Of a stretch of DNA of 64,000 nt, positions 1,438 to 34,123 are shown piece by piece. The position numbers were made by a program, and so were the translations under genes. Source of the DNA: Candidatus Eiseniibacteriota bacterium (GTDB taxonomy: Bacteria; Eisenbacteria; RBG-16-71-46; JABDJR01); assembly GCA_963783375.1 (NCBI GenBank), contig CAWANH010000028.1, positions 512,001 through 576,000 of the forward strand, written 5' to 3'. The notes under the pieces were generated by a model. That model saw only the letters and a program-made list of their open reading frames with translations. It searched no databases and was not told the DNA's origin. Positions within the stretch are counted from its first letter, which is position 1. Every line of letters begins with the position of its first letter.

Positions 1438-2593
1438 ATGCACCGCCTTCCCCACCCCAACCGCCTCCTGCCCGTCGCAGCGATCGCGACTTCTCACCGC
1501 CGCCACCGCGTTTCTCATCTCCTGCGGAGGCGGGTCCTCCCCCACCGGTCCCTCGAACCGGTGCGGGGAGCCCGGCATCATCTGCACGGTCATGGGAATG
1601 AGCCGGGCCGCCTACATCGGCGAGGGGGAAACGCCCGACAAGGTCGCCCTCTACTACCCGATCGATCTTGCCTTCGACCAGGAAAACCGGCTTCTGGTAT
1701 TGGACTGGAACAACCTGCGGATTCGGCGCCTCGATCACGACGGGCGGGTGCGCACCATCATGGGAACGGGGTGGGAGGCCACGCCGGTCCCCGGCCAGCC
1801 CGCGTCCCAGACCCCCCTCCACCACACCTTCTCCATGTGTTTCGACTCCCACTGGATGCTCTACATGGCCGGCTTCCACGTGCCCATGATCGTGACCCTG
1901 GACGACAGCCTGAAGGTCGGGATCCTCGCGGGGGTGGACAGCGTGGGGTTCGGCGGGGACGGCGGACCGGCGTCCCGGGCCCTCATGAACAACCCCTGCG
2001 GGGTGGCGGTGGATCCGTCGGGATACCCGGTCTGGATAGCCGACACCTACAACAACCGGATCCGGCGGATCGACGCGGACGGAACGATCCGCACCGTGGC
2101 CGGCACCGGGGCGCGGGGATACGCGGGCGACGACGGCCCGGGAACCGCGTGCGAGTTCAACCACCCCTACCGGGTCCGCCTCGACACCGCCACCGGCGAT
2201 CTCTACATCTGCGACACCGAGAACAGCGCGATCCGGAGGCTGGACCCCCAGGGAATTGTCCACGCGGTGGCCGGCACCGGCGTGGCGGGCTATTCCGGCG
2301 ACGGCGGCCCCGCCGTCCAGGCCCGGCTCGACAACCCGCTCGACGCCAGGGTCGGTCCCGACGGTCTCCTGTACATCGTGGACAGCGCCAACAACTGCAT
2401 CCGGCGGGTGGACGCCCAGGGGAACATTCACACCGTGGTGGGAACCGGAGAGGCCGGAAACTCCGGGGACGGCGGCCCGGCGGAGAAGGCCCGGCTCAAG
2501 AACCCCTCCTGCGTCATCTGGGACAAGGACGGGAACCTGTGGCTAACCGACATGTTCAACTGTAATGTCCGGGAAGTCACCGCCTGGGACTAG
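1438..2593 (+). CDS. NHL-repeat beta-propeller lipoprotein (apparent +1 frameshift near 1489-1492)
   Basis: ATG at 1438 after AGGAG gives MHRLPHPNRLLPVAAIA; the next frame continues LLTAATAFLISCGG..CGEPGIICTVMG into NHL repeats (ORF 1592-2593). That frame has no start of its own upstream (TGA at 1415). Confidence 0.75.
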
Positions 2594-2631
2594 CCCGTCC
2601 CCGCGGCCGTCTTGCAAAGGGGAGGTGTTTC

Positions 2632-3141
2632 TTGTCGAATTCCCGCGTCAAACATGCCGATCGGTTCCGCCCGCTGCCGGTCCTGATCGCGGCGGTCTCG
2701 GGGGCGGCGCTCCTGACCTACGTGGCCGCCTGCGGCGGCGGCTCCACCACCAAACCCCCTCCCCCCGCGGATTGCTCCAGCGTGGCCGACACCACCCAAC
2801 CCGCCACCGTGAGCTACGCGAACGACATCGTGCCGCTCTTCGCCGAACTCTCCAACGGCGGATACGGATGCGCCGACGCCGGCTGCCACGGCGGGGCCTT
2901 CCTGAGCTCCAACTACAGCGTGGCGTCGCGGGATGACGTTCTGATCCCGGGGGACGAGGCGGTGAACCGCAGGCTCTGCGTGGTCAAGCCCGGCGCCCCC
3001 GAGGACAGCTACCTCGTCATGAAACTCGAAGGCCGGCTGGGAATCGACGGGGTGCAGATGCCCAACGGCCAGAACCCGATGACCGCCGAGGATCTCCAGA
3101 AGGTGAAGACCTGGATCCTGGAGGGGGCACGGGACAACTGA
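2632..3141 (+). CDS. Lipoprotein with cytochrome c-like domain (CX4CH motif)
   Basis: Lipobox VAAC; motifs CADAGCHGG, V.PG.PEDSYLVMKL, QMP (possible Met axial ligand) and WILEGA resemble planctomycete-type cytochrome c domains. Confidence 0.65.
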   Translation: MSNSRVKHADRFRPLPVLIAAVSGAALLTYVAACGGGSTTKPPPPADCSSVADTTQPATVSYANDIVPLFAELSNGGYGCADAGCHGGAFLSSNYSVASRDDVLIPGDEAVNRRLCVVKPGAPEDSYLVMKLEGRLGIDGVQMPNGQNPMTAEDLQKVKTWILEGARDN

Positions 3142-3167
3142 CCGCGCCGACCGGAGGAGACCGCTCC

Positions 3168-4094
3168 ATGCTGCGCATTCGCTTGCTTCAGTTTGTCCTC
3201 TGCACGTTGGCGGTCGTTGCCGCCGGGTCCCACGCAACCCCGGCCCGCGCCGCCGACGGCGTCCCCGCCCTGGATCACGTGATCGTGATCATCATGGAAA
3301 ACCACTCCTACGACGAGGTGCGGACCCAGACCTACACCGCAAGCCTGATCCAGAACGGCACCTCGTTCTCCGATTCCCACGGGGTCACCCACCCCTCGCA
3401 GCCCAACTACCTGGCTCTGTGGTCGGGATCGACCCAGGGAGTGACCGGGGACCAGTGCCCGGCGCCGGGTCAACCCTTCTCGGGTGAGAACCTCGGGCAT
3501 GCCTGCGAGGCGGCCGGGCTCACCTGGAAGGCCTATTCCGAAGACCTCCCCTCGGCGGGCTCCACCGACTGCACCGCGAACTCGAGCCTCTACACCCGGA
3601 AGCACGATCCCTGGACCGATTTCACCAACGTCGACCACACGAACGAGGTCCCGTTCTCCCAGCTGGCCGCGGATGAGGCGGGTGGCACGCTTCCCGATCT
3701 CGCCTTCGTCATCCCCAACAACTGCGACAACTCCCACAACTCGGGATGCTCGGTGGCCGAGGGCGACACCTGGCTCTCCCGGAACGTGCCGGCCATGCTG
3801 GATGCGGTGGGAGCCAGGGGAATGGTCGTCCTTACCTGGGACGAGGACGACTTCACCGCCTCCAACCACATTCTCACCGTGTTCCAGGGGGTGCTGGTGA
3901 AGGGCGGCGCCAACGTCTCCACACGCCACGTCACCCACTACACCGTGCTGAGGACGATCTGCGACGTGCTGGGCCTTCAGCCGTTCGGCGCCGCCGCCCT
4001 CGAGTCCCCTCTGACGGACATCTGGAACGATTCGACCGGCGTTCCGACCGAGCGCGCGAGCTGGGGAAGAATCAAGGCTCGCTACGGGGACTAG
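3168..4094 (+). CDS. Secreted phosphoesterase / acid phosphatase family protein with SWGRIKARYG C-terminal tail
   Basis: Signal peptide; motifs DHVIVIIMENHSYD, HPSQPNYLAL, YTRKHDPW, TWDED, HYTVLRTI; GGAGGAG RBS. Confidence 0.85.
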   Translation: MLRIRLLQFVLCTLAVVAAGSHATPARAADGVPALDHVIVIIMENHSYDEVRTQTYTASLIQNGTSFSDSHGVTHPSQPNYLALWSGSTQGVTGDQCPAPGQPFSGENLGHACEAAGLTWKAYSEDLPSAGSTDCTANSSLYTRKHDPWTDFTNVDHTNEVPFSQLAADEAGGTLPDLAFVIPNNCDNSHNSGCSVAEGDTWLSRNVPAMLDAVGARGMVVLTWDEDDFTASNHILTVFQGVLVKGGANVSTRHVTHYTVLRTICDVLGLQPFGAAALESPLTDIWNDSTGVPTERASWGRIKARYGD

Positions 4095-4161
4095 CCCGAC
4101 TCTTCACGGTCCAGCGTCACGAGGGGGCCCGGGAGCAACCTCTGCTCGCCGACGGTCCGGG

Positions 4162-4680
4162 CTATGACTTCCGCGTGTAGCGGATGACCCAGACGTCCTT
4201 CCAGGTCTTCCCCCCGTCCACCGAGCGCTGCCAGTTCCAGTCGAAGGCGTCGTGGGTGATGTTCTGCCACACCATCCGCTGGATGTAGGTCTTGCCCTCG
4301 TGTTCGGCTTCCCGGGTGAACATCATCTTCCCGTCCTTGAAGCCCCCGGTGAAGTCCAGGTAGCCGCCCTCGTTGTCCACCCAGGTCTGCCGCCAGACCC
4401 CCTGCTTCGGGTCGTAGGTGGATACGCTCTTTCCCACCAGCCCGTTTCCCTCGGGGCCCGAGGCGTCGAAGTTCTCCTCGATCACGCAACCGCCGAGGGT
4501 TTTCCGGATGGTGTTGGTGCCCTTCCCACCTTCCCAGACGGCGTTCCACTCCCCCACCCAGAAGTCGAACTGGGCGAACTCGGGGGCGGAGCATGGGGGC
4601 GGGGCCTCTTTCTCCTGGGCAGAGGCCACGCCGGGAGCGAGGGCGAGAACGATGGCGAACAGGGTGAGCGGACGCTTCAT
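4162..4680 (-). CDS. Secreted DUF1579-like protein
   Basis: Signal peptide (ASA-Q); QFDFWVGEW, WRQTWVDN and S.DGGKTW patterns; AGGAGG RBS. Confidence 0.7.
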   Translation of the reverse strand: MKRPLTLFAIVLALAPGVASAQEKEAPPPCSAPEFAQFDFWVGEWNAVWEGGKGTNTIRKTLGGCVIEENFDASGPEGNGLVGKSVSTYDPKQGVWRQTWVDNEGGYLDFTGGFKDGKMMFTREAEHEGKTYIQRMVWQNITHDAFDWNWQRSVDGGKTWKDVWVIRYTRKS

Positions 4681-5025
4681 GACGGAGTCCTCCTGGTGGG
4701 CCGGCGGAATGCGTCTTCCGGCTCTGTTGGCGGACCGAGGGGTATGGGCTCGGGTACGGCCCGGGGCCGCGTGACGGCAAGGGGGGATGCGCCGATCCTA
4801 CCACGGCCGGGCGCCCGTCTGCATTCCGCGAGCCGGGGCCGCCCGCGCGACGGCGCCCCGGTCCGGTTTCGCCCCACCGGGCCCCCCGTCCATCCGGCGG
4901 CCGGCGGGTGGGGCGGGGGGAACCGGTTTGGTAGTCTCGGATCCATCAGCCCGGCCCGTCCGCGACCCGGCCCCCCGGCCGGCCCGGGCTTCATGGGCGG
5001 GAACCGCTCATCGAGGAGACCTACC

Positions 5026-6030
5026 ATGCCCAAGCATCGAGCCCCGAATGCCATATTGGTCCTGGGCGCCGTCCTGGTGATCCTCGGGATGGACGCCTGC
5101 GGCTCCCGGGAGCCGGCCGGTGATTCCGCCGCCCGCTCGGACCGGCCCCACCAGGAGCCGGCAGGAGCTTCGGTGACCAACCCGACCCGGGTCCTCTGGA
5201 CGGACGGGGTGAAAAACGCCTACCCCCGTTGGTCCCGGGACGGGACGCGGATCCTCTACCAGACGAACCGGGGCGGGACGTGGCAGATCCACGTCATGAA
5301 CCGGGACGGCACCGGCGACCGGCGCGTCACCGAAGACGCGTTCAACGACAATTACGTCGACTGGTCGCCGGACAACACGCGGATCGCCTTCGTCTCCGAC
5401 CGCACCGGGAACGAGGACGTGTTCGTGATGGACATGGACGGCGGAAATCTCAGGAATCTCACCCGCCACCCGGGACGCGACATCCATCCCTACTGGGCGC
5501 CCGACGGGAAGAGCGTGCTCTTCAATTCCGATCGCGACGGAGCGGACCAGTTCGACGTGTACCGGGTGAACGTCGACGGGTCGGGGCTCCGGCGGCTGAC
5601 CGCGACCGGGTCGACCGAGACCTGCGCGCGGCTCTCCCCGGATGAGAGCCGGGTCGTCCTCCTCCACGGGGCCATGAACGACGAGGTCTACGCCATGGAC
5701 GCCGACGGCGGGAACCCGGTCAACCTCACCCGGACCGCCGCCGCGGAAGGGTGGCCGGCTTGGTCTCCCGACGGGACCCGGATCGTCTACTCCTCGGACT
5801 CCCCCGGCACCATGAGCCTCTTCCTCATGAACGCCGACGGCTCGGGGAAGCGGCAGATCACCAGCCCCCTCCCCACCTTCCGGGACGGCCGGGCCATGAT
5901 CTCACCGGACGGGAAGGAGATCGTCTTCAACCGCGAGGACGACCGGACCATCGGGATCTACACCATGCCGCTCGGGGGAAGTCTCCCGCCCCTTCCGGGG
6001 GGAGAAGCGGGTGCGGAGACAGGGGGCTAG
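5026..6030 (+). CDS. TolB-like PD40-repeat beta-propeller lipoprotein
   Basis: Repeated P.WSPDG..I.F.SDR.G...(V/I)..M..DG units; lipobox MDAC; ATG at 5026 after GAGGAG. Confidence 0.85.
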   Translation: MPKHRAPNAILVLGAVLVILGMDACGSREPAGDSAARSDRPHQEPAGASVTNPTRVLWTDGVKNAYPRWSRDGTRILYQTNRGGTWQIHVMNRDGTGDRRVTEDAFNDNYVDWSPDNTRIAFVSDRTGNEDVFVMDMDGGNLRNLTRHPGRDIHPYWAPDGKSVLFNSDRDGADQFDVYRVNVDGSGLRRLTATGSTETCARLSPDESRVVLLHGAMNDEVYAMDADGGNPVNLTRTAAAEGWPAWSPDGTRIVYSSDSPGTMSLFLMNADGSGKRQITSPLPTFRDGRAMISPDGKEIVFNREDDRTIGIYTMPLGGSLPPLPGGEAGAETGG

Positions 6031-6073
6031 CCGGTCGAAGGAGCGGTGCTGACCGCGGGCGCGGCCGGCCCGC

Positions 6074-7604
<1,531 letters not shown>

Positions 7605-26619: not shown

Positions 26620-27008
26620 TTGATGGTTCTCCCTGCTAAGTTCAAAAAAGTCTATGGATTATGGCGATCCAGACCGAGGCCTCGCCGCCGCCGCCCCACC
26701 GCCACCGCTCCACGGCCGGCGCGCGACGCGGGGATCGAGCCGGGGGACAACCAAGAATACGGCATTCCGCCGCCGCTTGCACGATCCCGGGGCACTCTCC
26801 GGTTGCCTGGCGCCGGGGCATCCCGACTTGTTCGATCCGGGGCGAAATGATACAAATACGATCCGATGAGCTGAGCGCCCCCGGCGTGCTTCGGCCCGGA
26901 AACGCCGGGGCGCGCGTGGGAGCCTCGGTCAGACGGAACCGGCGGCCCGTCCAGGCGACGACCGTCCGGGACGAGAGCAAGTCCATCAGCCACCAAGGAG
27001 GGTCCCCG

Positions 27009-27173
27009 ATGGAGAACGAGAACCGGAACCCCGCCCCCCGGTCCGAAGACGCGGCCGCCCAGGAAGACGTCGAACTCTTCGCGTCCTACACGGTGGAAGA
27101 GATCAACGAGCGCCGGGAGCTTTTCACGCCCGGCGCGACGATCTGGTACAGCTCGAACCAGCCCATCAGCTAG
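27009..27173 (+). CDS. Putative RiPP precursor peptide (54 aa)
   Basis: Strong AAGGAGG RBS. MENENRNPAPRSEDAAAQEDVELFASYTVEEINERRELF-TPGATIWYSSNQPIS has an acidic leader-like part and an uncharged core-like tail, and sits directly upstream of an RRE-peptidase. Confidence 0.75.
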   Translation: MENENRNPAPRSEDAAAQEDVELFASYTVEEINERRELFTPGATIWYSSNQPIS

Positions 27174-27255
27174 GCGCCCCTTGGAGGCGCGGATTCGACC
27201 GACTTCGGGTCGCCGGAGGGACGGATCCCGGGCGCGCCGGGAGGAGGACACGGTT

Positions 27256-28446
27256 GTGGCCGGCGTCCCCCGCCTCGGCGAAGGCATTGAAGTTCCCACG
27301 CCCCGCGGGAGCGAGGACGACGTCGTGGTCGCTCTCCCCTCGGGGCGTTTCCTTGCCCTATCCGCCGATGCCGCCCGCTTTCTCCGCCTGGTCGACGGCC
27401 GGCGGGATCTTGCGGAGCTGGCCCGGCTCCACGCCGCCGAGCGCGACCGTCCCTTCACCCCCGAGGCGGCGGAACGGTTGATCCGGACGACCTTCCTCCC
27501 CGCGGGCCTGATCCATTTCGGCCAACCTCCCCCCGACCCCGGGCCTCCCCGCTCCCGCCTCTGGCTCCGCCTCCCCCTCATTCCCGCGGGAGCGGCCTCG
27601 TCCCTGGGCCGCCGCCTCGCCCCTCTCTTCGGCCGCCGCAGCGTGGTCCCCGGCCTCGTCCTGGCCGCGGGGCTCCACCTCGCGTTCTACCTGTCCCGCC
27701 CCCGGCTGGGCCTGGAGGGCGCCGGGCTCGGGAGCGAGGGCTGGCTCCCCGCGACCGCGCTCTACCTCCTGGGGTCGATCTGGCACGAGCTGGGGCACGT
27801 CGCCGCCCTCCGACGGTCCGGGGAAGCGCCGGGGGGAATCGGCCTCGGCATGTACTACGCCGTCCCGGTCTTTCACTCCGACGTCTCCCGCGCCTGGCTC
27901 CTCTCGCGCCGCGACCGGGCGACGGTGGACCTGGGGGGGATGTACTTCCAGGCGCTCTTCGCCGGCGGACTCTGCGCGGTCTACCTCGTTCTGGGGGGAG
28001 CGGCCTGGTCCAAGGCGATCCTCTTCACCGACCTCGCCCTGCTCCTCAACCTGAACCCGTTCCTTCGCATGGACGGCTACTGGCTGGTGGCCGATCTCAC
28101 CGGTTCGCTCGACCTCCGGGACAGTTCGCTCCGGCGCCTTCGATCGCCGGCCCGAGGCGCCCCGGCCCGCGCCTTCCGCGGACTCGGGATCTACGCCGTG
28201 GCGAGCCTCGTCTATCTCCTGGCCCTCTCCGCGTGGATGGCGGTGGCCGTCCTTCCCCGCGCGGTGACCACCCTCGCCGGGGCCGGGAGGGGGGCGCCGC
28301 TTCCCGGCCTGCTCTTCGCCGTTCTGGTGGTGGCCGGGACCGGCGTTTTCCTCGTCCGCTCGGCCGGGCTCATCTACCGGTTCGCCGCCGGCCCGCGAGC
28401 GGGCTCCTCCGATCCCCTCCCCGAGGGGCGGGCCGCCGGGCGATGA
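27256..28446 (+). CDS. RRE(PqqD)-like domain fused to M50 membrane zinc metallopeptidase (YydH-like)
   Basis: GGAGGAGG RBS plus GTG; N-terminal three-strand/three-helix pattern (..GRFLALS..A..LRLVDGRR.LAELA..L..AGLI); HELGH and NLNPFLRMDGY motifs; multiple TM helices. Confidence 0.85.
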   Translation: MAGVPRLGEGIEVPTPRGSEDDVVVALPSGRFLALSADAARFLRLVDGRRDLAELARLHAAERDRPFTPEAAERLIRTTFLPAGLIHFGQPPPDPGPPRSRLWLRLPLIPAGAASSLGRRLAPLFGRRSVVPGLVLAAGLHLAFYLSRPRLGLEGAGLGSEGWLPATALYLLGSIWHELGHVAALRRSGEAPGGIGLGMYYAVPVFHSDVSRAWLLSRRDRATVDLGGMYFQALFAGGLCAVYLVLGGAAWSKAILFTDLALLLNLNPFLRMDGYWLVADLTGSLDLRDSSLRRLRSPARGAPARAFRGLGIYAVASLVYLLALSAWMAVAVLPRAVTTLAGAGRGAPLPGLLFAVLVVAGTGVFLVRSAGLIYRFAAGPRAGSSDPLPEGRAAGR

Positions 28447-29660
28447 TGCCCGGCCTCCACCGCTCACTCCGGGACCTGGGGATCCTGGGCCGGGCCCTGG
28501 CCGGGGTTCCGCGCCGCCGCCGGGCCCTGGGGGGATTCGCCCCCCTCCTCCCGGTGAGCTTCTCCACCGCCCTCAGCGAGACCCATTCCCCCCGCGAGCT
28601 TCGGGCGCTGGCCCGCCGGTATCCCCTGGAACTGACCTTGAACGATCTCCTGAACCGGGAGGTCTCCCGGGGCCGCCCCGCCCACCGGATCGAGAACCCG
28701 TCCGCGGTCCGCCCGGAAGGCGGCGCCGGGATCCTGGTCTGCGCCATGCACCTCGGTCCGTTCCACCAGGTCACCGCCGAGCTCCTCCGGATCCGCGACC
28801 GGGCCGCGGTCTTCGCCTCCCGCCACATCGCCGGGCAGCTCCAAAGCGCCTGGAGCGGCGGCGCCCGTGCCCACGGGAAGCATCTCGAGGTCCTGGTGAG
28901 CGACGAGCGGCGAAGCGTCCCCCGGGCCTTGCGAACGCTGGCCGCGGGCGGTTGCGTGGTCATCTACATGGACGCCGACAACCGGGTGCGGGGGCTCGAA
29001 GGCCGGAGCGGCGGCTCGGTGGACCTCCGGTTTCTCGGGCTACCCCTTCGGGTCAGCTCGGGACCGGCGCGGCTGGCCCGGGCGGCCCGGGCGGACACCG
29101 TGCTCGCGGCGAGCTGGCGGGAGCGGGGGTTCCGCACGGTGGTGCGGTTCTCGCATCCCCTGCCCCCCCTGACCGAGGCCTCGGAGGAGACGGTCACTAG
29201 GCGCGTGGGGGCCATGTACGCCTGGTTCGAACCCCTCCTGCGCGCCCATCCCGAACAGTGGGACGGATGGCTTCCCCAGGTTCTCTACTGGTCGGAGACC
29301 GGGAAGCCGCCTTCGGCCGGCCGGACCCGGTTCGAGGCGGAGCGGCGGCGTCTGGAGAAACTGGTCCGCTCGGGGGAAAAGCGCGCACGCCTGTCCGCCG
29401 AGCCGGCCCACGTGGGATGGCTCTCGCGGGGGGAGGAGCGCTTGTTGATCCACGGGCCGCGGCGGCTGATTCTCAAGGGGGACCCGCTGGCGTGCGATCT
29501 GCTGGACGCCGCGCTCCGCCGGCGGAAGGTCTCCACGCTCCGCCGTTCCTTCCACGAGGAGCCGGAGCGATTGGCCGAGACCCTGGCCCGGCTCGAGCTT
29601 GCCGGGCTCCTCGCGGTCGAGACCGGGGCCCCGCGCCCGGCGGAGCCGGCAACACCCTGA
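28443..29660 (+). CDS. Lipid A (LpxL-like/LPLAT) acyltransferase with C-terminal RRE-like domain
   Basis: GILVCAMHLGPF, VVIYMDAD, FLG..GPARLA and HPEQW motifs; C-terminal approx. 80 aa ending LARLELAGLL; ATGA overlap with the peptidase gene. Confidence 0.75.
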   Translation: MMPGLHRSLRDLGILGRALAGVPRRRRALGGFAPLLPVSFSTALSETHSPRELRALARRYPLELTLNDLLNREVSRGRPAHRIENPSAVRPEGGAGILVCAMHLGPFHQVTAELLRIRDRAAVFASRHIAGQLQSAWSGGARAHGKHLEVLVSDERRSVPRALRTLAAGGCVVIYMDADNRVRGLEGRSGGSVDLRFLGLPLRVSSGPARLARAARADTVLAASWRERGFRTVVRFSHPLPPLTEASEETVTRRVGAMYAWFEPLLRAHPEQWDGWLPQVLYWSETGKPPSAGRTRFEAERRRLEKLVRSGEKRARLSAEPAHVGWLSRGEERLLIHGPRRLILKGDPLACDLLDAALRRRKVSTLRRSFHEEPERLAETLARLELAGLLAVETGAPRPAEPATP

Positions 29661-29668
29661 CACAGCGC

Positions 29669-29699
29669 CGCCCCGAGGGGTTTCGAACCCCCCGGGGCG
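29669..29699. terminator. Strong hairpin between convergent genes (possible bidirectional terminator)
   Basis: CGCCCCGAGGGGTT-TCG-AACCCCCCGGGGCG, a 14-bp stem with one mismatch; no U-tract. Confidence 0.45.
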
Positions 29700-29730
29700 C
29701 GCGGTGAGGGCACCGTGTTACCCCGATCGA

Positions 29731-32335: not shown

Positions 32336-34123
32336 ATGAACACGATTGTACGGCGGCCCGGGCCTCTTCAACGAGCAAAATCGCAGCGTACCCCCCGGAT
32401 GGACCAAATTCACCCGGAGAGGAGCCGATTCACCCCCCGGATGGAGCGGGTTCACCCGGAGAGGAGCCGATTCACCCCCCGGATGGAGCGGGTTCACCCG
32501 GAGAGGAGCCGGTTTACCCCGCGAATGGACCCCGCTCACCCCGAAAGGCGTCCCGGCCACCGGATCGTCCGGCGGGTTGCGGTCGCGGTTCTATGGCTGG
32601 TCCTGGGGCTCCTTCCCGGCCTCTCCGAGGCCTCGAACCGGATTACCATCCTTCACTTCAACGACTTCCACTCCCAGATCGAGCCCCGGGACGCGGGCCA
32701 CGGCGCGCTCCGGGGGGGCGCCGCCTACCTGGCCGGCGCGGTCGACATCGTGCGGCGGGATACCCCCAACTCCCTCCTCCTCGATGCCGGGGACAACGTC
32801 CAGGGAACCCCGTACTTCAACTTCTTCCGGGGCGAGGTGGAGGTCCGTCTCCTGAACCTGATGCAGGTCGACGCCACGGTCCTCGGAAACCACGAGTTCG
32901 ACAACGGCTTCGCGGCGGCGGAAACGATGCTCGCCCCCGCCCGCCTCCCGGTTCTCTCCGCCAACGTCGTCGTCGCCGACAGCGCCGAAGCCGCCCGCCC
33001 GGAGCGCTCCTTCGACATGACGGCCGGCCTGGTGGAAACCCCGTCCGCCGGGGACCGGGCCGCCGGGCTTCCCGCCGGGGTCCACCGGCTAGCCCTTCCC
33101 TATGCGGTCTACGCGGTGGGGGGGGTGCGGATCGGGGTGGTGGGGGTCACCACCGCCGATCTGCCCCGGCTGGTCCTTCCCACCGTCAACCGAGGCCTCG
33201 CCGCGCTTCCCCCCGTCGAAGCAGTCCGCCCCTGGGTGGAGCGGATCCGCCCCCGGGTCGATCTCGTGGTGGTGCTCAGCCACTGCGGGCTCGAACCGGA
33301 CTCGCTCCTGGCCGTCGCGGTCCCCGGGATCGACATCATCGTCTCGGGGCACGATCACGTGGCCCTTCCCGAGCCGCGGCTCGTCCCCAACCGCAACCGG
33401 AACGGGATCGGCGGAACCCTGCTGGTGGAAGCGGGCTCCCGCGGCGATTTCCTGGGCCGGTTGGACCTGGAGATGGAAGGCCGGCGAATTCTCGACTTCC
33501 GGGGACGGCTCCTGCCGGTGGGTCCGGACCTTCCGCCCGATCCGGCGGCGGCGGAGATGATCGCGGGGTATCGCGAGCGACTGGGGGAGGAGATCGGGCA
33601 GGTGATCGCCACCGCCCCGCGCGGCCTCTCCGGGGAGGGGAGGTTCCGGCGGGCCACCCCCCTCGGCACGTTCATCGCCGAGGTGATGCGCGAGGCGGCG
33701 GGGGCGGACCTCGCGATCGAGAACAGCGGAGGCATCCGGGCCTCGATTCACCCCGGCCCGGTGACCCTGGGGGACGCCTACGCCGTGATTCCCTTCGAGA
33801 ACACCATCGTCCGCTGCACCCTGAAGGGATCCCAGGTACGCCGCCTCCTCGAGGACGCGGTGGCGCGCCGAAGCCGGGACGAGTATCCCCAGCTCGCCGG
33901 AGTGAGCTTCACCGAGGACAACGGAAGACCGGTGGGGATCGAGGTGGGCGGACTTCCGCTGCGTGAGGACGGAGCGTACCGGGTGGCCACGAACAACTAC
34001 GTCTTCGCCGGAGGAGACGACTTTCCGGAGTTCGACAAGGCGGAAAATGCGATGGATACCGGACTGAACCTGCGGGAAGTGTTCATCGAGGCGGTCAAGA
34101 AGCAGAAAATCCTTCTTCCCTAG
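32336..34123 (+). CDS. Secreted 5'-nucleotidase / UDP-sugar hydrolase family
   Basis: LHFNDFH, LDAGD, LGNHEFD, LSHCG, SGHDH, NSGGIR, PFEN, ATNNY..GGD; signal peptide after the repeat region; true start uncertain. Confidence 0.9.
   Translation: MNTIVRRPGPLQRAKSQRTPRMDQIHPERSRFTPRMERVHPERSRFTPRMERVHPERSRFTPRMDPAHPERRPGHRIVRRVAVAVLWLVLGLLPGLSEASNRITILHFNDFHSQIEPRDAGHGALRGGAAYLAGAVDIVRRDTPNSLLLDAGDNVQGTPYFNFFRGEVEVRLLNLMQVDATVLGNHEFDNGFAAAETMLAPARLPVLSANVVVADSAEAARPERSFDMTAGLVETPSAGDRAAGLPAGVHRLALPYAVYAVGGVRIGVVGVTTADLPRLVLPTVNRGLAALPPVEAVRPWVERIRPRVDLVVVLSHCGLEPDSLLAVAVPGIDIIVSGHDHVALPEPRLVPNRNRNGIGGTLLVEAGSRGDFLGRLDLEMEGRRILDFRGRLLPVGPDLPPDPAAAEMIAGYRERLGEEIGQVIATAPRGLSGEGRFRRATPLGTFIAEVMREAAGADLAIENSGGIRASIHPGPVTLGDAYAVIPFENTIVRCTLKGSQVRRLLEDAVARRSRDEYPQLAGVSFTEDNGRPVGIEVGGLPLREDGAYRVATNNYVFAGGDDFPEFDKAENAMDTGLNLREVFIEAVKKQKILLP
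32390..32550 (+). repeat. 42-bp tandem repeat (about 3.7 copies)
   Basis: CACCC recurs at 32411, 32453, 32495 and 32537; unit CACCCGGAGAGGAGCCGATTCACCCCCCGGATGGAGCGGGTT (encodes HPERSRFTPRMERV). Confidence 0.9.

Follow-up and report, generated by a model that had tools for sequence, protein, structure and literature searches.

A three-gene cassette in the Eisenbacteria

We describe a compact cassette of three genes, all on the + strand, in a 64,000-nt stretch of DNA (the window, in whose positions features are numbered here) from a contig of Candidatus Eiseniibacteriota (CAWANH010000028.1), a candidate phylum of which we know of no cultured members. The genes encode a small peptide (P0001), a putative membrane metalloprotease (P0002) and an acyltransferase-like protein (P0003). 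An initial annotation of the window had read them as a minimal pathway for a peptide that is made on the ribosome and modified after translation (RiPP), in which both enzymes would grip the leader of the precursor through a RiPP recognition element (RRE) and the core would be acylated and released at the membrane. The analysis reported below leads us to regard the cassette as a well-supported candidate for a new RiPP class.

Features of the cassette and their coordinates are collected in Table 1. The open reading frame (ORF) for the 54-aa peptide begins six bases downstream of a strong ribosome-binding site, AAGGAGGG, which the relative at locus L023 carries as well. The two enzyme genes are translationally coupled, the ATG of the acyltransferase gene at 28443 overlapping the TGA stop codon of the protease gene (ATGA). 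The protease ORF comprises 421 codons if read from TTG 27181 and 396 if read from GTG 27256; the latter is probably the true start, because its ribosome-binding site (GGAGGAGG) is much better and because the NCBIfam match described below begins only at residue 30 of the long form. RNA 3' of the acyltransferase stop codon folds at -40.4 kcal/mol, as compared to -28.1 +/- 3.4 for shuffled sequences (z -3.6, with 1 of 200 shuffles equally stable). The strong ribosome-binding site, the gene overlap, the closing hairpin and the HELGH and NLNPFLRMDG motifs of the second gene had all been noted in the initial annotation, and each was found again on inspection, though the hairpin has no T-run and was not listed by a simple terminator scan. 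A sigma-70 promoter scan returned 0 sites, and no RNA run was listed for this stretch.

Table 1. Positions of cassette features in the window, and of phospholipase D (PLD)-superfamily genes beside the cassette in related loci
Feature	Sequence	Positions	Strand	Basis
Ribosome-binding site of precursor, AAGGAGGG	Window	26995-27002	+	Read from sequence; six bases 5' of precursor ATG
Precursor peptide gene P0001, 54 aa	Window	27009-27173	+	ORF list; member of 33-row alignment A4
Leader recognition motif V21-F39, VELFASYTVEEINERRELF	Window	27069-27125	+	Conserved block of A4
Hypervariable C-terminal core, about T40-S54 (approximate boundary)	Window	27126-27170	+	Length and sequence vary in A4
Putative RRE-fused M50 (site-2-type) intramembrane metalloprotease gene P0002	Window	27181 (TTG) or 27256 (GTG) to 28446	+	NCBIfam matches below cutoffs
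Ribosome-binding site of protease, GGAGGAGG	Window	27240-27247	+	8 bases upstream of GTG 27256
PqqD/RRE-like N-terminal domain of protease, about residues 30-115	Window	27268-27525	+	PF05402 sub-cutoff match
HELGH zinc-binding motif, residues 202-206 (TTG form)	Window	27784-27798	+	Sequence
NLNPFLRMDG, third zinc ligand region of site-2 proteases, residues 290-299 (TTG form)	Window	28048-28077	+	Sequence
Acyltransferase-like gene P0003, 405 aa, with C-terminal RRE-fold domain	Window	28443-29660	+	ORF list; predicted fold
His103 codon (HLGP)	Window	28749-28751	+	Profile alignment with PHSGNW His of PatA
Asp177 codon (YxDGN)	Window	28971-28973	+	Sole invariant column of alignment A1
C-terminal RRE-fold domain of acyltransferase, residues 313-395	Window	29379-29627	+	Predicted structure matches
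G+C-rich hairpin between cassette and convergent downstream gene	Window	29655-29710	+	RNA folding
PLD-superfamily gene	L034	5677-6987 (oriented)
PLD-superfamily gene	L036	155-1405
PLD-superfamily gene	L037	2931-4181
PLD-superfamily gene	L038	2318-4048
PLD-superfamily gene	L030	382-2499

A conserved family of precursor peptides

Twenty related loci were fetched and analyzed together with the window, giving 21 loci. Searches by tblastn and by motif found homologous short ORFs directly 5' of the enzyme genes in 19 of these; at the two others (L026 and L035) the contig ends at that point. The conserved upstream peptide that the initial annotation had anticipated for homologous gene pairs is thus present, as a set of 33 ORFs. 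Aligned (alignment A4), they share a short polar N-terminus followed by the block (V/I)ELF-x-(A/S/T)(F/Y)-x-V-E-E-(I/L)-x-x-R, with consensus VELFxAxxVEEIxER, in which L23 is invariant. The C-terminal parts vary in both length and sequence and share no particular last residue; Ser, Tyr, Trp, Cys, Gly and Asp are abundant in them. With leader and core divided at an alignment column rather than at a mapped cleavage site, Ser, Thr or Tyr occurs in 33 of 33 cores, Lys in 15 and Cys in 13. Precursors are found as tandem copies in L025 and L028 (four each), in L036, L037 and L040 (three each), and in L033 and L038 (two each), and a Shine-Dalgarno-like site precedes all but one of the precursor ORFs that were called by script. 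This pattern of conservation indicates that the small ORF belongs to a real precursor family. The cassette also has the general form of a RiPP cluster: a short precursor with conserved leader and variable core, beside enzymes predicted to recognize the leader.

A protease related to that of the daptides

Residues 30-392 of P0002 are spanned by the NCBIfam model daptide_HExxH (NF041824; E-value 3.3e-32, 112 bits vs the cutoff of 300), and residues 195-303 by the YydH/LiaK model (NF058609; E-value 4.5e-12, 46 bits vs the cutoff of 225), while Pfam PF02163 did not report the protein. Two motifs, HExxH and (N/D/E)xxPxxxxDG, are both kept in 14 of 14 homologous proteases; in P0002 they sit among hydrophobic segments of transmembrane type, the combination that characterizes site-2/M50 proteases. 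The Asp of NLNPFLRMDG is presumably a zinc ligand, as we understand the site-2 family in general. For the PqqD/RRE-like N-terminus claimed in the initial annotation, there is support from homologs: 10 of 13 homologous N-terminal segments match PF05402 (PqqD), the best at E-value 4.7e-4, and the window's own segment matches at 0.0018 (19 bits, below the cutoff of 23.4; 0.02 when all of P0002 is searched). By these profile matches, P0002 is related to the daptide RRE-protease, although it scores below the cutoff.

The likeness to daptides extends to architecture and neighboring genes. In their protease, MpaP (NF041824), an N-terminal RRE precedes the M50 membrane protease, an order that P0002 probably shares, and both adjoin one or several short precursor genes; an excerpt of the daptide report describes an intramembrane site-2 protease with an RRE joined to its N-terminus, and a leader of the form ELExMEAP (10.1101/2023.03.08.531785). 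The cassette differs in its leader, VELFxxFxVEEI, in its variable C-termini without the invariant C-terminal Thr, in having no genes for an oxidoreductase, aminotransferase or methyltransferase, and in the partner of the protease, an acyltransferase with a predicted LpxM/PatA fold. The epipeptide proteases YydH/LiaK/EpeP are a second point of comparison: these and P0002 are M50 leader proteases (the latter putatively so) of small RiPP cassettes that have no separate exporter. Unlike the epipeptide clusters, however, the cassette has no radical-SAM epimerase, and the match of P0002 to their protease is limited to residues 195-303.

An acyltransferase fold of the LpxM/PatA kind

Sequence alone makes P0003 no more than a faint member of the lipid A acyltransferase family. 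A model for phosphatidylinositol mannoside (PIM) acyltransferases matches it at E-value 2.9e-5, and the family's Pfam cutoff (PF03279) is passed by 7 of the 17 homologous ORFs scanned in related loci (24.0-36.8 bits) and by further relatives. A profile of 29 homologs (alignment A1) matches PatA (E-value 3e-9) and LpxM (1e-8) among solved structures, whereas a search of the same structures with the single sequence of P0003 produced nothing relevant. The structure model built on these 29 homologs has a predicted local distance difference test (pLDDT) of 91.1 and a predicted template modeling score (pTM) of 0.88. Foldseek places LpxM first (E-value 7.2e-12) and PatA next (8.7e-11), followed by PlsC and a glycerol-3-phosphate acyltransferase, and VIA-align superposes the model on LpxM (5knk) with Z 21.9 over 250 residues at a root mean square deviation (rmsd) of 3.2, and on PatA (7ojt) with Z 20.9 over 233 residues at 3.0. 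We therefore predict with high confidence that P0003 has the lysophospholipid acyltransferase (LPLAT) alpha/beta fold of the LpxM/PatA kind, and the LpxL-family identity proposed for the third gene in the initial annotation is upheld at the level of fold.

The family's HLGP histidine (His103) is aligned by profile with the His of the PHSGNW motif of PatA, and its equivalent is kept in 25 of the 29 rows of A1. Asp177, within YxDGN, forms the only invariant column of that alignment, and an FLGxPxRxxxG block is conserved. P0003 therefore has in common with LpxM/LpxL and PatA (PF03279) the predicted fold, the position of the catalytic His and the FFG/FLG block. It differs from them in the absence of the HX4(D/E) acid, in the added RRE-fold domain of about 90 residues, in adjoining or being fused to a RiPP-type protease and precursors, and in being an accessory rather than a core-genome gene. 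LpxL, LpxM, PatA and PlsC are O-acyltransferases that use acyl-acyl carrier protein (acyl-ACP) or acyl-coenzyme A (acyl-CoA). Two canonical PF03279 genes lie elsewhere in the window's genome (162 and 159 bits).

A word-based homology search gave only three relatives of P0003, so that exhaustive HMMER searching and a scan of the phylum were needed. The HMMER search found 233 representative proteins at E-value <= 1e-3, 57 of them at <= 1e-10 and 30 at <= 1e-30; several are 680-850 residues long, with the match confined to the C-terminal half. Relatives are publicly named 'lauroyl/myristoyl acyltransferase', 'putative peptide zinc metalloprotease' or 'hypothetical'. Three of the proteins seen, P0029 (854 aa), P0047 (829 aa) and P0161, contain two tandem PF03279 stretches (71-78 bits) and are possible double acyltransferases of the same family.

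A C-terminal RRE fold and its predicted leader complex

Beyond the acyltransferase fold, residues 313-395 of P0003 are predicted to fold as a short strand, then a sheet of three strands, three helices and one last strand. A VIA fold search covered about 48,000 representative chains. Its matches to the domain start directly below the top three LPLAT matches and are interleaved with weaker ones, and almost all of them are RREs: TigE (Z 8.0), CteB (7.7), MccB (7.3), MibB (7.2), a lasso peptide B1 protein with leader (7.0), TbiB1 with leader (6.9), PqqD (6.8), the RRE of PbtF (6.1) and LynD (6.1), and further MadB, TbtB, NisB, TglHI (5.4), ThcOx and McbBCD, with TigE to LynD, TbtB and NisB spanning Z 5.6-8.0. 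DNA-binding winged helices of the OmpR/ArsR type reach Z of about 5 or less in the same search. Modeled alone, the domain has pLDDT 92.9, and Foldseek then lists TbiB1 at the top (E-value 8.4e-3, TM-score 0.61), followed by CteB, lasso B1, TbtB, LynD, TruD and TigE, the last of which superposes with TM-score 0.70 and rmsd 1.8.

We folded the acyltransferase (29-row alignment) together with the precursor (33-row alignment) in three runs, alongside three controls. The complex scored ipSAE 0.76, 0.75 and 0.81, as compared to 0.11 for the best of the controls; the mark that we apply to this score is attained by 116 of 157 solved complexes, as against 2 of 215 mismatched pairs, and is a rough one, our own alignments having been used. 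The runs share at least 55% of contacts, with pLDDT of the partner at least 56. On the acyltransferase, the predicted interface comprises residues 342-346 (LILKG, third strand), 383-387 (RLELA, third helix), 327-335 and 350 of the RRE-fold domain, together with 277-297, 28-32 and Arg203 of the conserved FLGxPxR block; on the precursor it comprises residues 18-29, 32-33 and 36-41. Contacts of lowest predicted error join acyltransferase residues 343-346 and 383-387 to L23-Y27 of the precursor. The leader is thus predicted to lie as a strand along beta-3 (342-346) and against alpha-3 (383-387), the canonical RRE mode, and the interface uses exactly the block that is conserved in the precursor family. 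At the level of prediction, the model supports the leader binding that the initial annotation had suggested for the acyltransferase. In its three-stranded sheet with three helices, and in the predicted course of the leader along beta-3/alpha-3, the domain resembles the known RREs of PqqD, lasso B1, LynD, NisB and CteB; unlike these, it ends an enzyme of LPLAT fold, a host fold absent from the papers that we searched.

Co-occurrence, architectures and accessory state

We scanned 206 genomes of the phylum, one of which (G072) is unpublished and bears no claim made here. The acyltransferase query gave 35 matches at E-value <= 1e-5, of which 21 are full-length matches to the class (E-value <= 3.9e-15) and the other 14 span the catalytic core only, at about 1e-6. 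The precursor profile gave 24 matches at E-value <= 0.01: 21 strong ones (<= 2.6e-9) and three weak ones that lie inside long open frames of 449-867 codons. Twenty genomes are in both strong sets. Of the two remaining, G086 has the enzyme only, on a contig that ends 35 bases upstream of the gene, and G109 has peptides only, 166 bases from the contig end at which the enzymes would be expected. The precursor profile was built from these loci, so their own matches are expected; the informative result is that, the G109 contig edge aside, no strong precursor match falls in a genome that lacks the enzyme. The compared genomes are kin, and the counts are not to be read as independent events.

The arrangement of peptide, protease and acyltransferase recurs in 19 of the 21 loci, beyond chance expectation. 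The protease is a separate protein encoded between peptide and acyltransferase in six loci (the window, L023, L024, L027, L033 and L040), and is fused to the acyltransferase in eight (L025, L028, L030, L031, L035, L036, L037 and L038), as it is also in P0006.

The cassette and its peptide are each single-copy in the window's own genome. Upstream, on the opposite strand, lie genes for UbiD and aconitase; downstream are those for a 249-aa protein that belongs to no family, for a ThiL-like AIRS protein and for a 5'-nucleotidase. The order aconitase, 249-aa gene and ThiL is syntenic in two genomes of the same genus, G048 (98% complete) and G049 (93%), and in G051 of the same family, where the gap between aconitase and the 249-aa gene is only 294, 393 and 133 bp, respectively, vs 3156 bp in the window. 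Comparison over window positions 26620-29730 finds the cassette in G000 and G050, whereas G048, G049 and G051 lack it at this site. As a whole, then, the cassette is accessory, having been inserted or deleted between aconitase and the 249-aa gene.

Other loci have neighbors of their own. Five of the 21 loci, all from a single family of the phylum (f17; Table 1), have a PLD-superfamily gene with two HKD motifs next to the cassette. These genes score below every NCBIfam cutoff, the nearest models being DrmC, cardiolipin synthase and NucT; in L034 the PLD gene overlaps the acyltransferase stop codon and is followed by a PAP2 phosphatase gene. They could provide a phospho-linked step in those clusters, or could reflect shared synteny only. 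Downstream, L029 and L024 have MBOAT, PMT_2 and UbiA genes. An obvious exporter occurs in just one of the 21 loci, L032, in which HlyD, an ABC ATPase and an ABC-2 permease are encoded directly upstream of the precursor on the same strand (oriented 2431-5461). A 1043-aa protein encoded at 751-3882 in L028, directly upstream of the four tandem precursors and on the same strand, belongs to no Pfam family and has only a faint NCBIfam TPR match.

Proposed maturation pathway and its alternatives

On balance we lean toward reading the cassette as a self-contained RiPP-type unit, in which the RRE-fold enzyme of LpxM/PatA type holds the VELF...EEI leader and likely acylates a hydroxyl or thiol of the core, after which the RRE-fused M50 protease removes the leader at the membrane. 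The conserved leader block would be gripped by the acyltransferase's C-terminal RRE-fold domain, and the active site would employ His103 and Asp177, in the manner of the His/Glu pair on which we take PatA to rely. Long-chain acyl-ACP or acyl-CoA would be the donor, as in LpxL, LpxM and PatA. Because the enzyme carries a leader-binding domain, acylation would take place while the leader is still attached, and on a side chain of the core rather than on a new N-terminus. Because of the O-acyltransferase chemistry of the family and the presence of Ser, Thr or Tyr in every core, we propose O-acylation of one of these residues, or S-acylation where Cys is present. Acylation would bring the core, polar in itself, to the membrane, which is where the site-2 protease cuts. 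The RRE-protease would then remove the leader and may also release or export the product, as proposed for EpeP, which according to the excerpted text of PMC10885120 is thought to cleave and export; release by the protease would explain the missing exporter of the cassette.

Two other modes of acylation were considered and dropped. Acylation of the N-terminus after leader removal would make an RRE on the enzyme pointless, and Lys N-acylation as a general mode is ill-matched to a family in which only 15 of 33 cores have Lys.

Several results weigh against the acylation pathway proposed here, beginning with the enzyme. P0003 itself scores 12.8 bits with PF03279 (E-value 0.068), short of the gathering cutoff of 22.3, and 4 of the 29 homologs in A1 lack the putative active-site His. 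The acid of HX4(D/E), which we take to be the definition of the catalytic motif, is not kept: P0003 has His108 at +5, and the position is variable across the family. Asp177 may replace the missing acid, as Glu200 presumably does in PatA. For the C-terminal domain, all Foldseek E-values of the lone domain are above 1e-3, PF05402 matches 0 of 17 members at E-value <= 1, and hhalign between the alignments of this domain and of the protease RRE gives a probability of 2%, with no kinship at profile level. The second RRE-like domain claimed in the initial annotation accordingly stands as a predicted fold and fails as a PqqD match; the fold as modeled is RRE-like, and descent from PqqD is not supported by sequence. 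Many RRE-leader complexes have been solved, so the passing score of the complex may stem from likeness to those cases and may partly reflect the model's memory of them; with partner pLDDT at 56-59, moreover, the core is not confidently placed.

Gene content raises further difficulties. No acyl-carrier, acyl-activating or exporter gene lies inside the cassette. At 6 of the 21 loci (L029, L032, L034, L039, L041 and L042) the peptide stands directly before the acyltransferase with no protease in the fetched stretch, which makes the acyltransferase, rather than the protease, the peptide's constant partner. Searching five of these six genomes with P0002 recovered an RRE-protease elsewhere in G102 (E-value 5.6e-69) and G103 (1.2e-55), and no protease in the remaining three (65, 83 and 93% complete). 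Lastly, the pathway is assembled from two kinds of material: the genes and their coupling, the predicted folds, the protease motifs, precursor conservation, co-occurrence, fusions and accessory state were seen directly, whereas we infer the acyl transfer, the acceptor residue, the acyl group and its donor, and the release at the membrane.

The two proteases encoded in trans (G102:C68:5045-6088 and G103:C19:184720-185985; L081-L083) match at 42-44% identity, and no acyltransferase or VELF-type peptide was found within about 1.5 kb of either.

Among the alternatives, the one that best survives, though we think it unlikely, accepts a RiPP-type system but denies fatty acid transfer: the LpxM/PatA-fold domain would be a leader-binding scaffold or would catalyze another reaction (short acyl transfer, or formation of an intramolecular ester), and the product would be a peptide that is processed but unlipidated. 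The unconserved acid, the homologs without His, the Pfam score of P0003 and the lack of an acyl-donor gene in the cassette would all fit this, and fusion to the protease would suit a scaffold too. Yet His103 aligns with the PatA His, HxGP is kept in at least 19 of the 21 locus copies, and an invariant Asp177 with a conserved FLGxPxRxxxG block is unexpected for a decayed enzyme; the six loci that pair peptide and acyltransferase with no protease nearby also speak against it.

Somewhat less probable again, in our estimate, is that the peptide is joined to a membrane lipid, the acyltransferase acting on an intermediate that is lipid- or phospho-linked (perhaps in concert with a phosphatidyl transferase of PLD type), to yield a phospholipid-like conjugate. 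The PLD neighbors at five loci invite this idea, above all in L034 with its overlapping PLD gene and adjoining PAP2 gene, as do the MBOAT, PMT_2 and UbiA genes of L029 and L024 and the Ser-rich tails that end many cores. The window cassette, however, has no such neighbor and is bounded by housekeeping genes, the PLD genes are below all NCBIfam cutoffs, and their restriction to f17 means that shared ancestry may explain the adjacency.

We rate as very improbable a pearlin-like scaffold, a reusable peptide whose modified C-terminal end would be clipped off as a small piece by the M50 protease, in the way of TglG and TmoG. According to an excerpt of PMC10885120, the M50 proteases in pearlin clusters cleave their peptides at the C-terminus, and TglHI is among the fold matches of the RRE domain (Z 5.4); but the C-terminal regions of the present family are variable with no conserved last residue, and the cassette has no oxidizing enzyme and none that adds amino acids. 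Finally, an ordinary lipid A late acyltransferase beside a housekeeping site-2 protease, with the small ORF there by chance, matches the names of the public relatives and of the nearest Atlas clusters but is already contradicted by the results and can hardly be right, given the two canonical PF03279 genes elsewhere in the genome, the absence of the cassette from same-genus genomes that are 98 and 93% complete, the conservation of the small ORF and its co-occurrence with the enzyme in 20 genomes, and the RRE-fold domain on the enzyme.

Relation to known lipidated RiPPs

The initial annotation had stated that known RiPP fatty-acylating enzymes are not of LpxL type, and our literature searches agree, having yielded only enzymes of the GCN5-related N-acetyltransferase (GNAT) type and the lipoprotein pathway. 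As listed in a paper of October 2026 (PMC13647313), RiPP acyltransferases are GNATs, acting in selidamides, lipolanthines, goadvionins, lipoavitides and aphotorhaptins; another lipidation route borrows the lipoprotein pathway (PMC13056109). In the GNAT-lipidated RiPPs a ribosomal peptide gains a fatty acyl group from primary metabolism (PMC13647313), which is what we propose for the cassette. The GNAT-fold enzymes are N-acyltransferases that act on Lys, Orn or the N-terminus, whereas the cassette enzyme has a predicted LPLAT-type fold, serves a family with Lys in 15 of 33 cores, and would carry out O- or S-acylation. Searches of PubMed Central (PMC; through 17 Nov 2026) and bioRxiv (until about 30 Oct 2026) found no link between LpxL/LPLAT-type enzymes and RiPPs; subscription journals and supplements were outside these searches, so an earlier description is possible. 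In NCBIfam release 20.0, neither these acyltransferases nor the peptides have a curated family.

Peptides become membrane-active through lipidation, and large non-ribosomal synthetases are the source of most lipopeptide drugs. If the proposed pathway is right, an RRE-guided acyltransferase of the lipid A/PIM fold would be a new family of RiPP maturases, probably with a new O- or S-acyl linkage, and many proteins now annotated as lauroyl/myristoyl acyltransferases would gain a function. A three-gene unit of 2.7 kb with hypervariable cores would also be attractive for genetically encoded lipopeptide libraries.

Relatives in low-G+C metagenomes

A metagenome scan seeded with low-G+C relatives gave 26 loci; a six-sequence alignment (A6) used as seed gave only two genome loci. 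In three of the 26 (L045, at 4493-6447, L046 and L047), an acyltransferase and an RRE-M50 protease are translationally coupled in reverse order, adjoining a TonB-type barrel or a two-component system, and the L045 protease matches daptide_HExxH at E-value 3.6e-16. No leader-like ORF was found near these three pairs, by eye or with a leader hidden Markov model, which again counts against the pathway that we favor. In many of the other low-G+C loci, the LPLAT proteins are 360-490 residues long and are extended at the C-terminus by about 100 residues. This extension aligns in register with the Eisenbacteria C-terminal domain, weakly (hhalign probability 12.5%, E-value 0.0023), and homology is not established.

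Short ORFs lie upstream of several of the low-G+C LPLAT genes; their N-terminal parts are conserved but of other types, and their C-terminal parts bear Cys. One leader type is common to L052, L055 (two copies), L066 and L068 (two copies), mostly with CC-containing cores; L060 and L064 share a second type; and in L048 and L059 SCC comes after an IFAxxxSxEELEAxF block that recalls the VELF...EELEAR leaders. These peptide sets may be sister RiPP families that act with the same enzyme. Going further, we suggest only tentatively, since we would expect it to fail more often than to hold, that RRE-bearing LPLAT enzymes are an unrecognized, widespread superfamily of ribosomal lipopeptide pathways, spread over several phyla and several unrelated leader families (VELF...EEI; MKIDLKN...SVRSQIK...FDEF with CC...CC cores; and IFAxxxSxEELEAxF with SCC cores, on low-G+C metagenome contigs). 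They would be the first maturases to link fatty acids by ester or thioester to leader-bound Ser, Thr, Tyr or Cys, with some clades adding a PLD-type phospho-transfer that would give phospholipid-like conjugates.

A tandem repeat downstream of the cassette

Farther along the window, a 42-bp tandem repeat at 32390-32529 (3.3 copies, 91% matches) encodes repeated HPERSRFTPRME units. It sits in the N-terminal, pre-catalytic part of the 5'-nucleotidase/metallophosphoesterase gene at 32336-34123.

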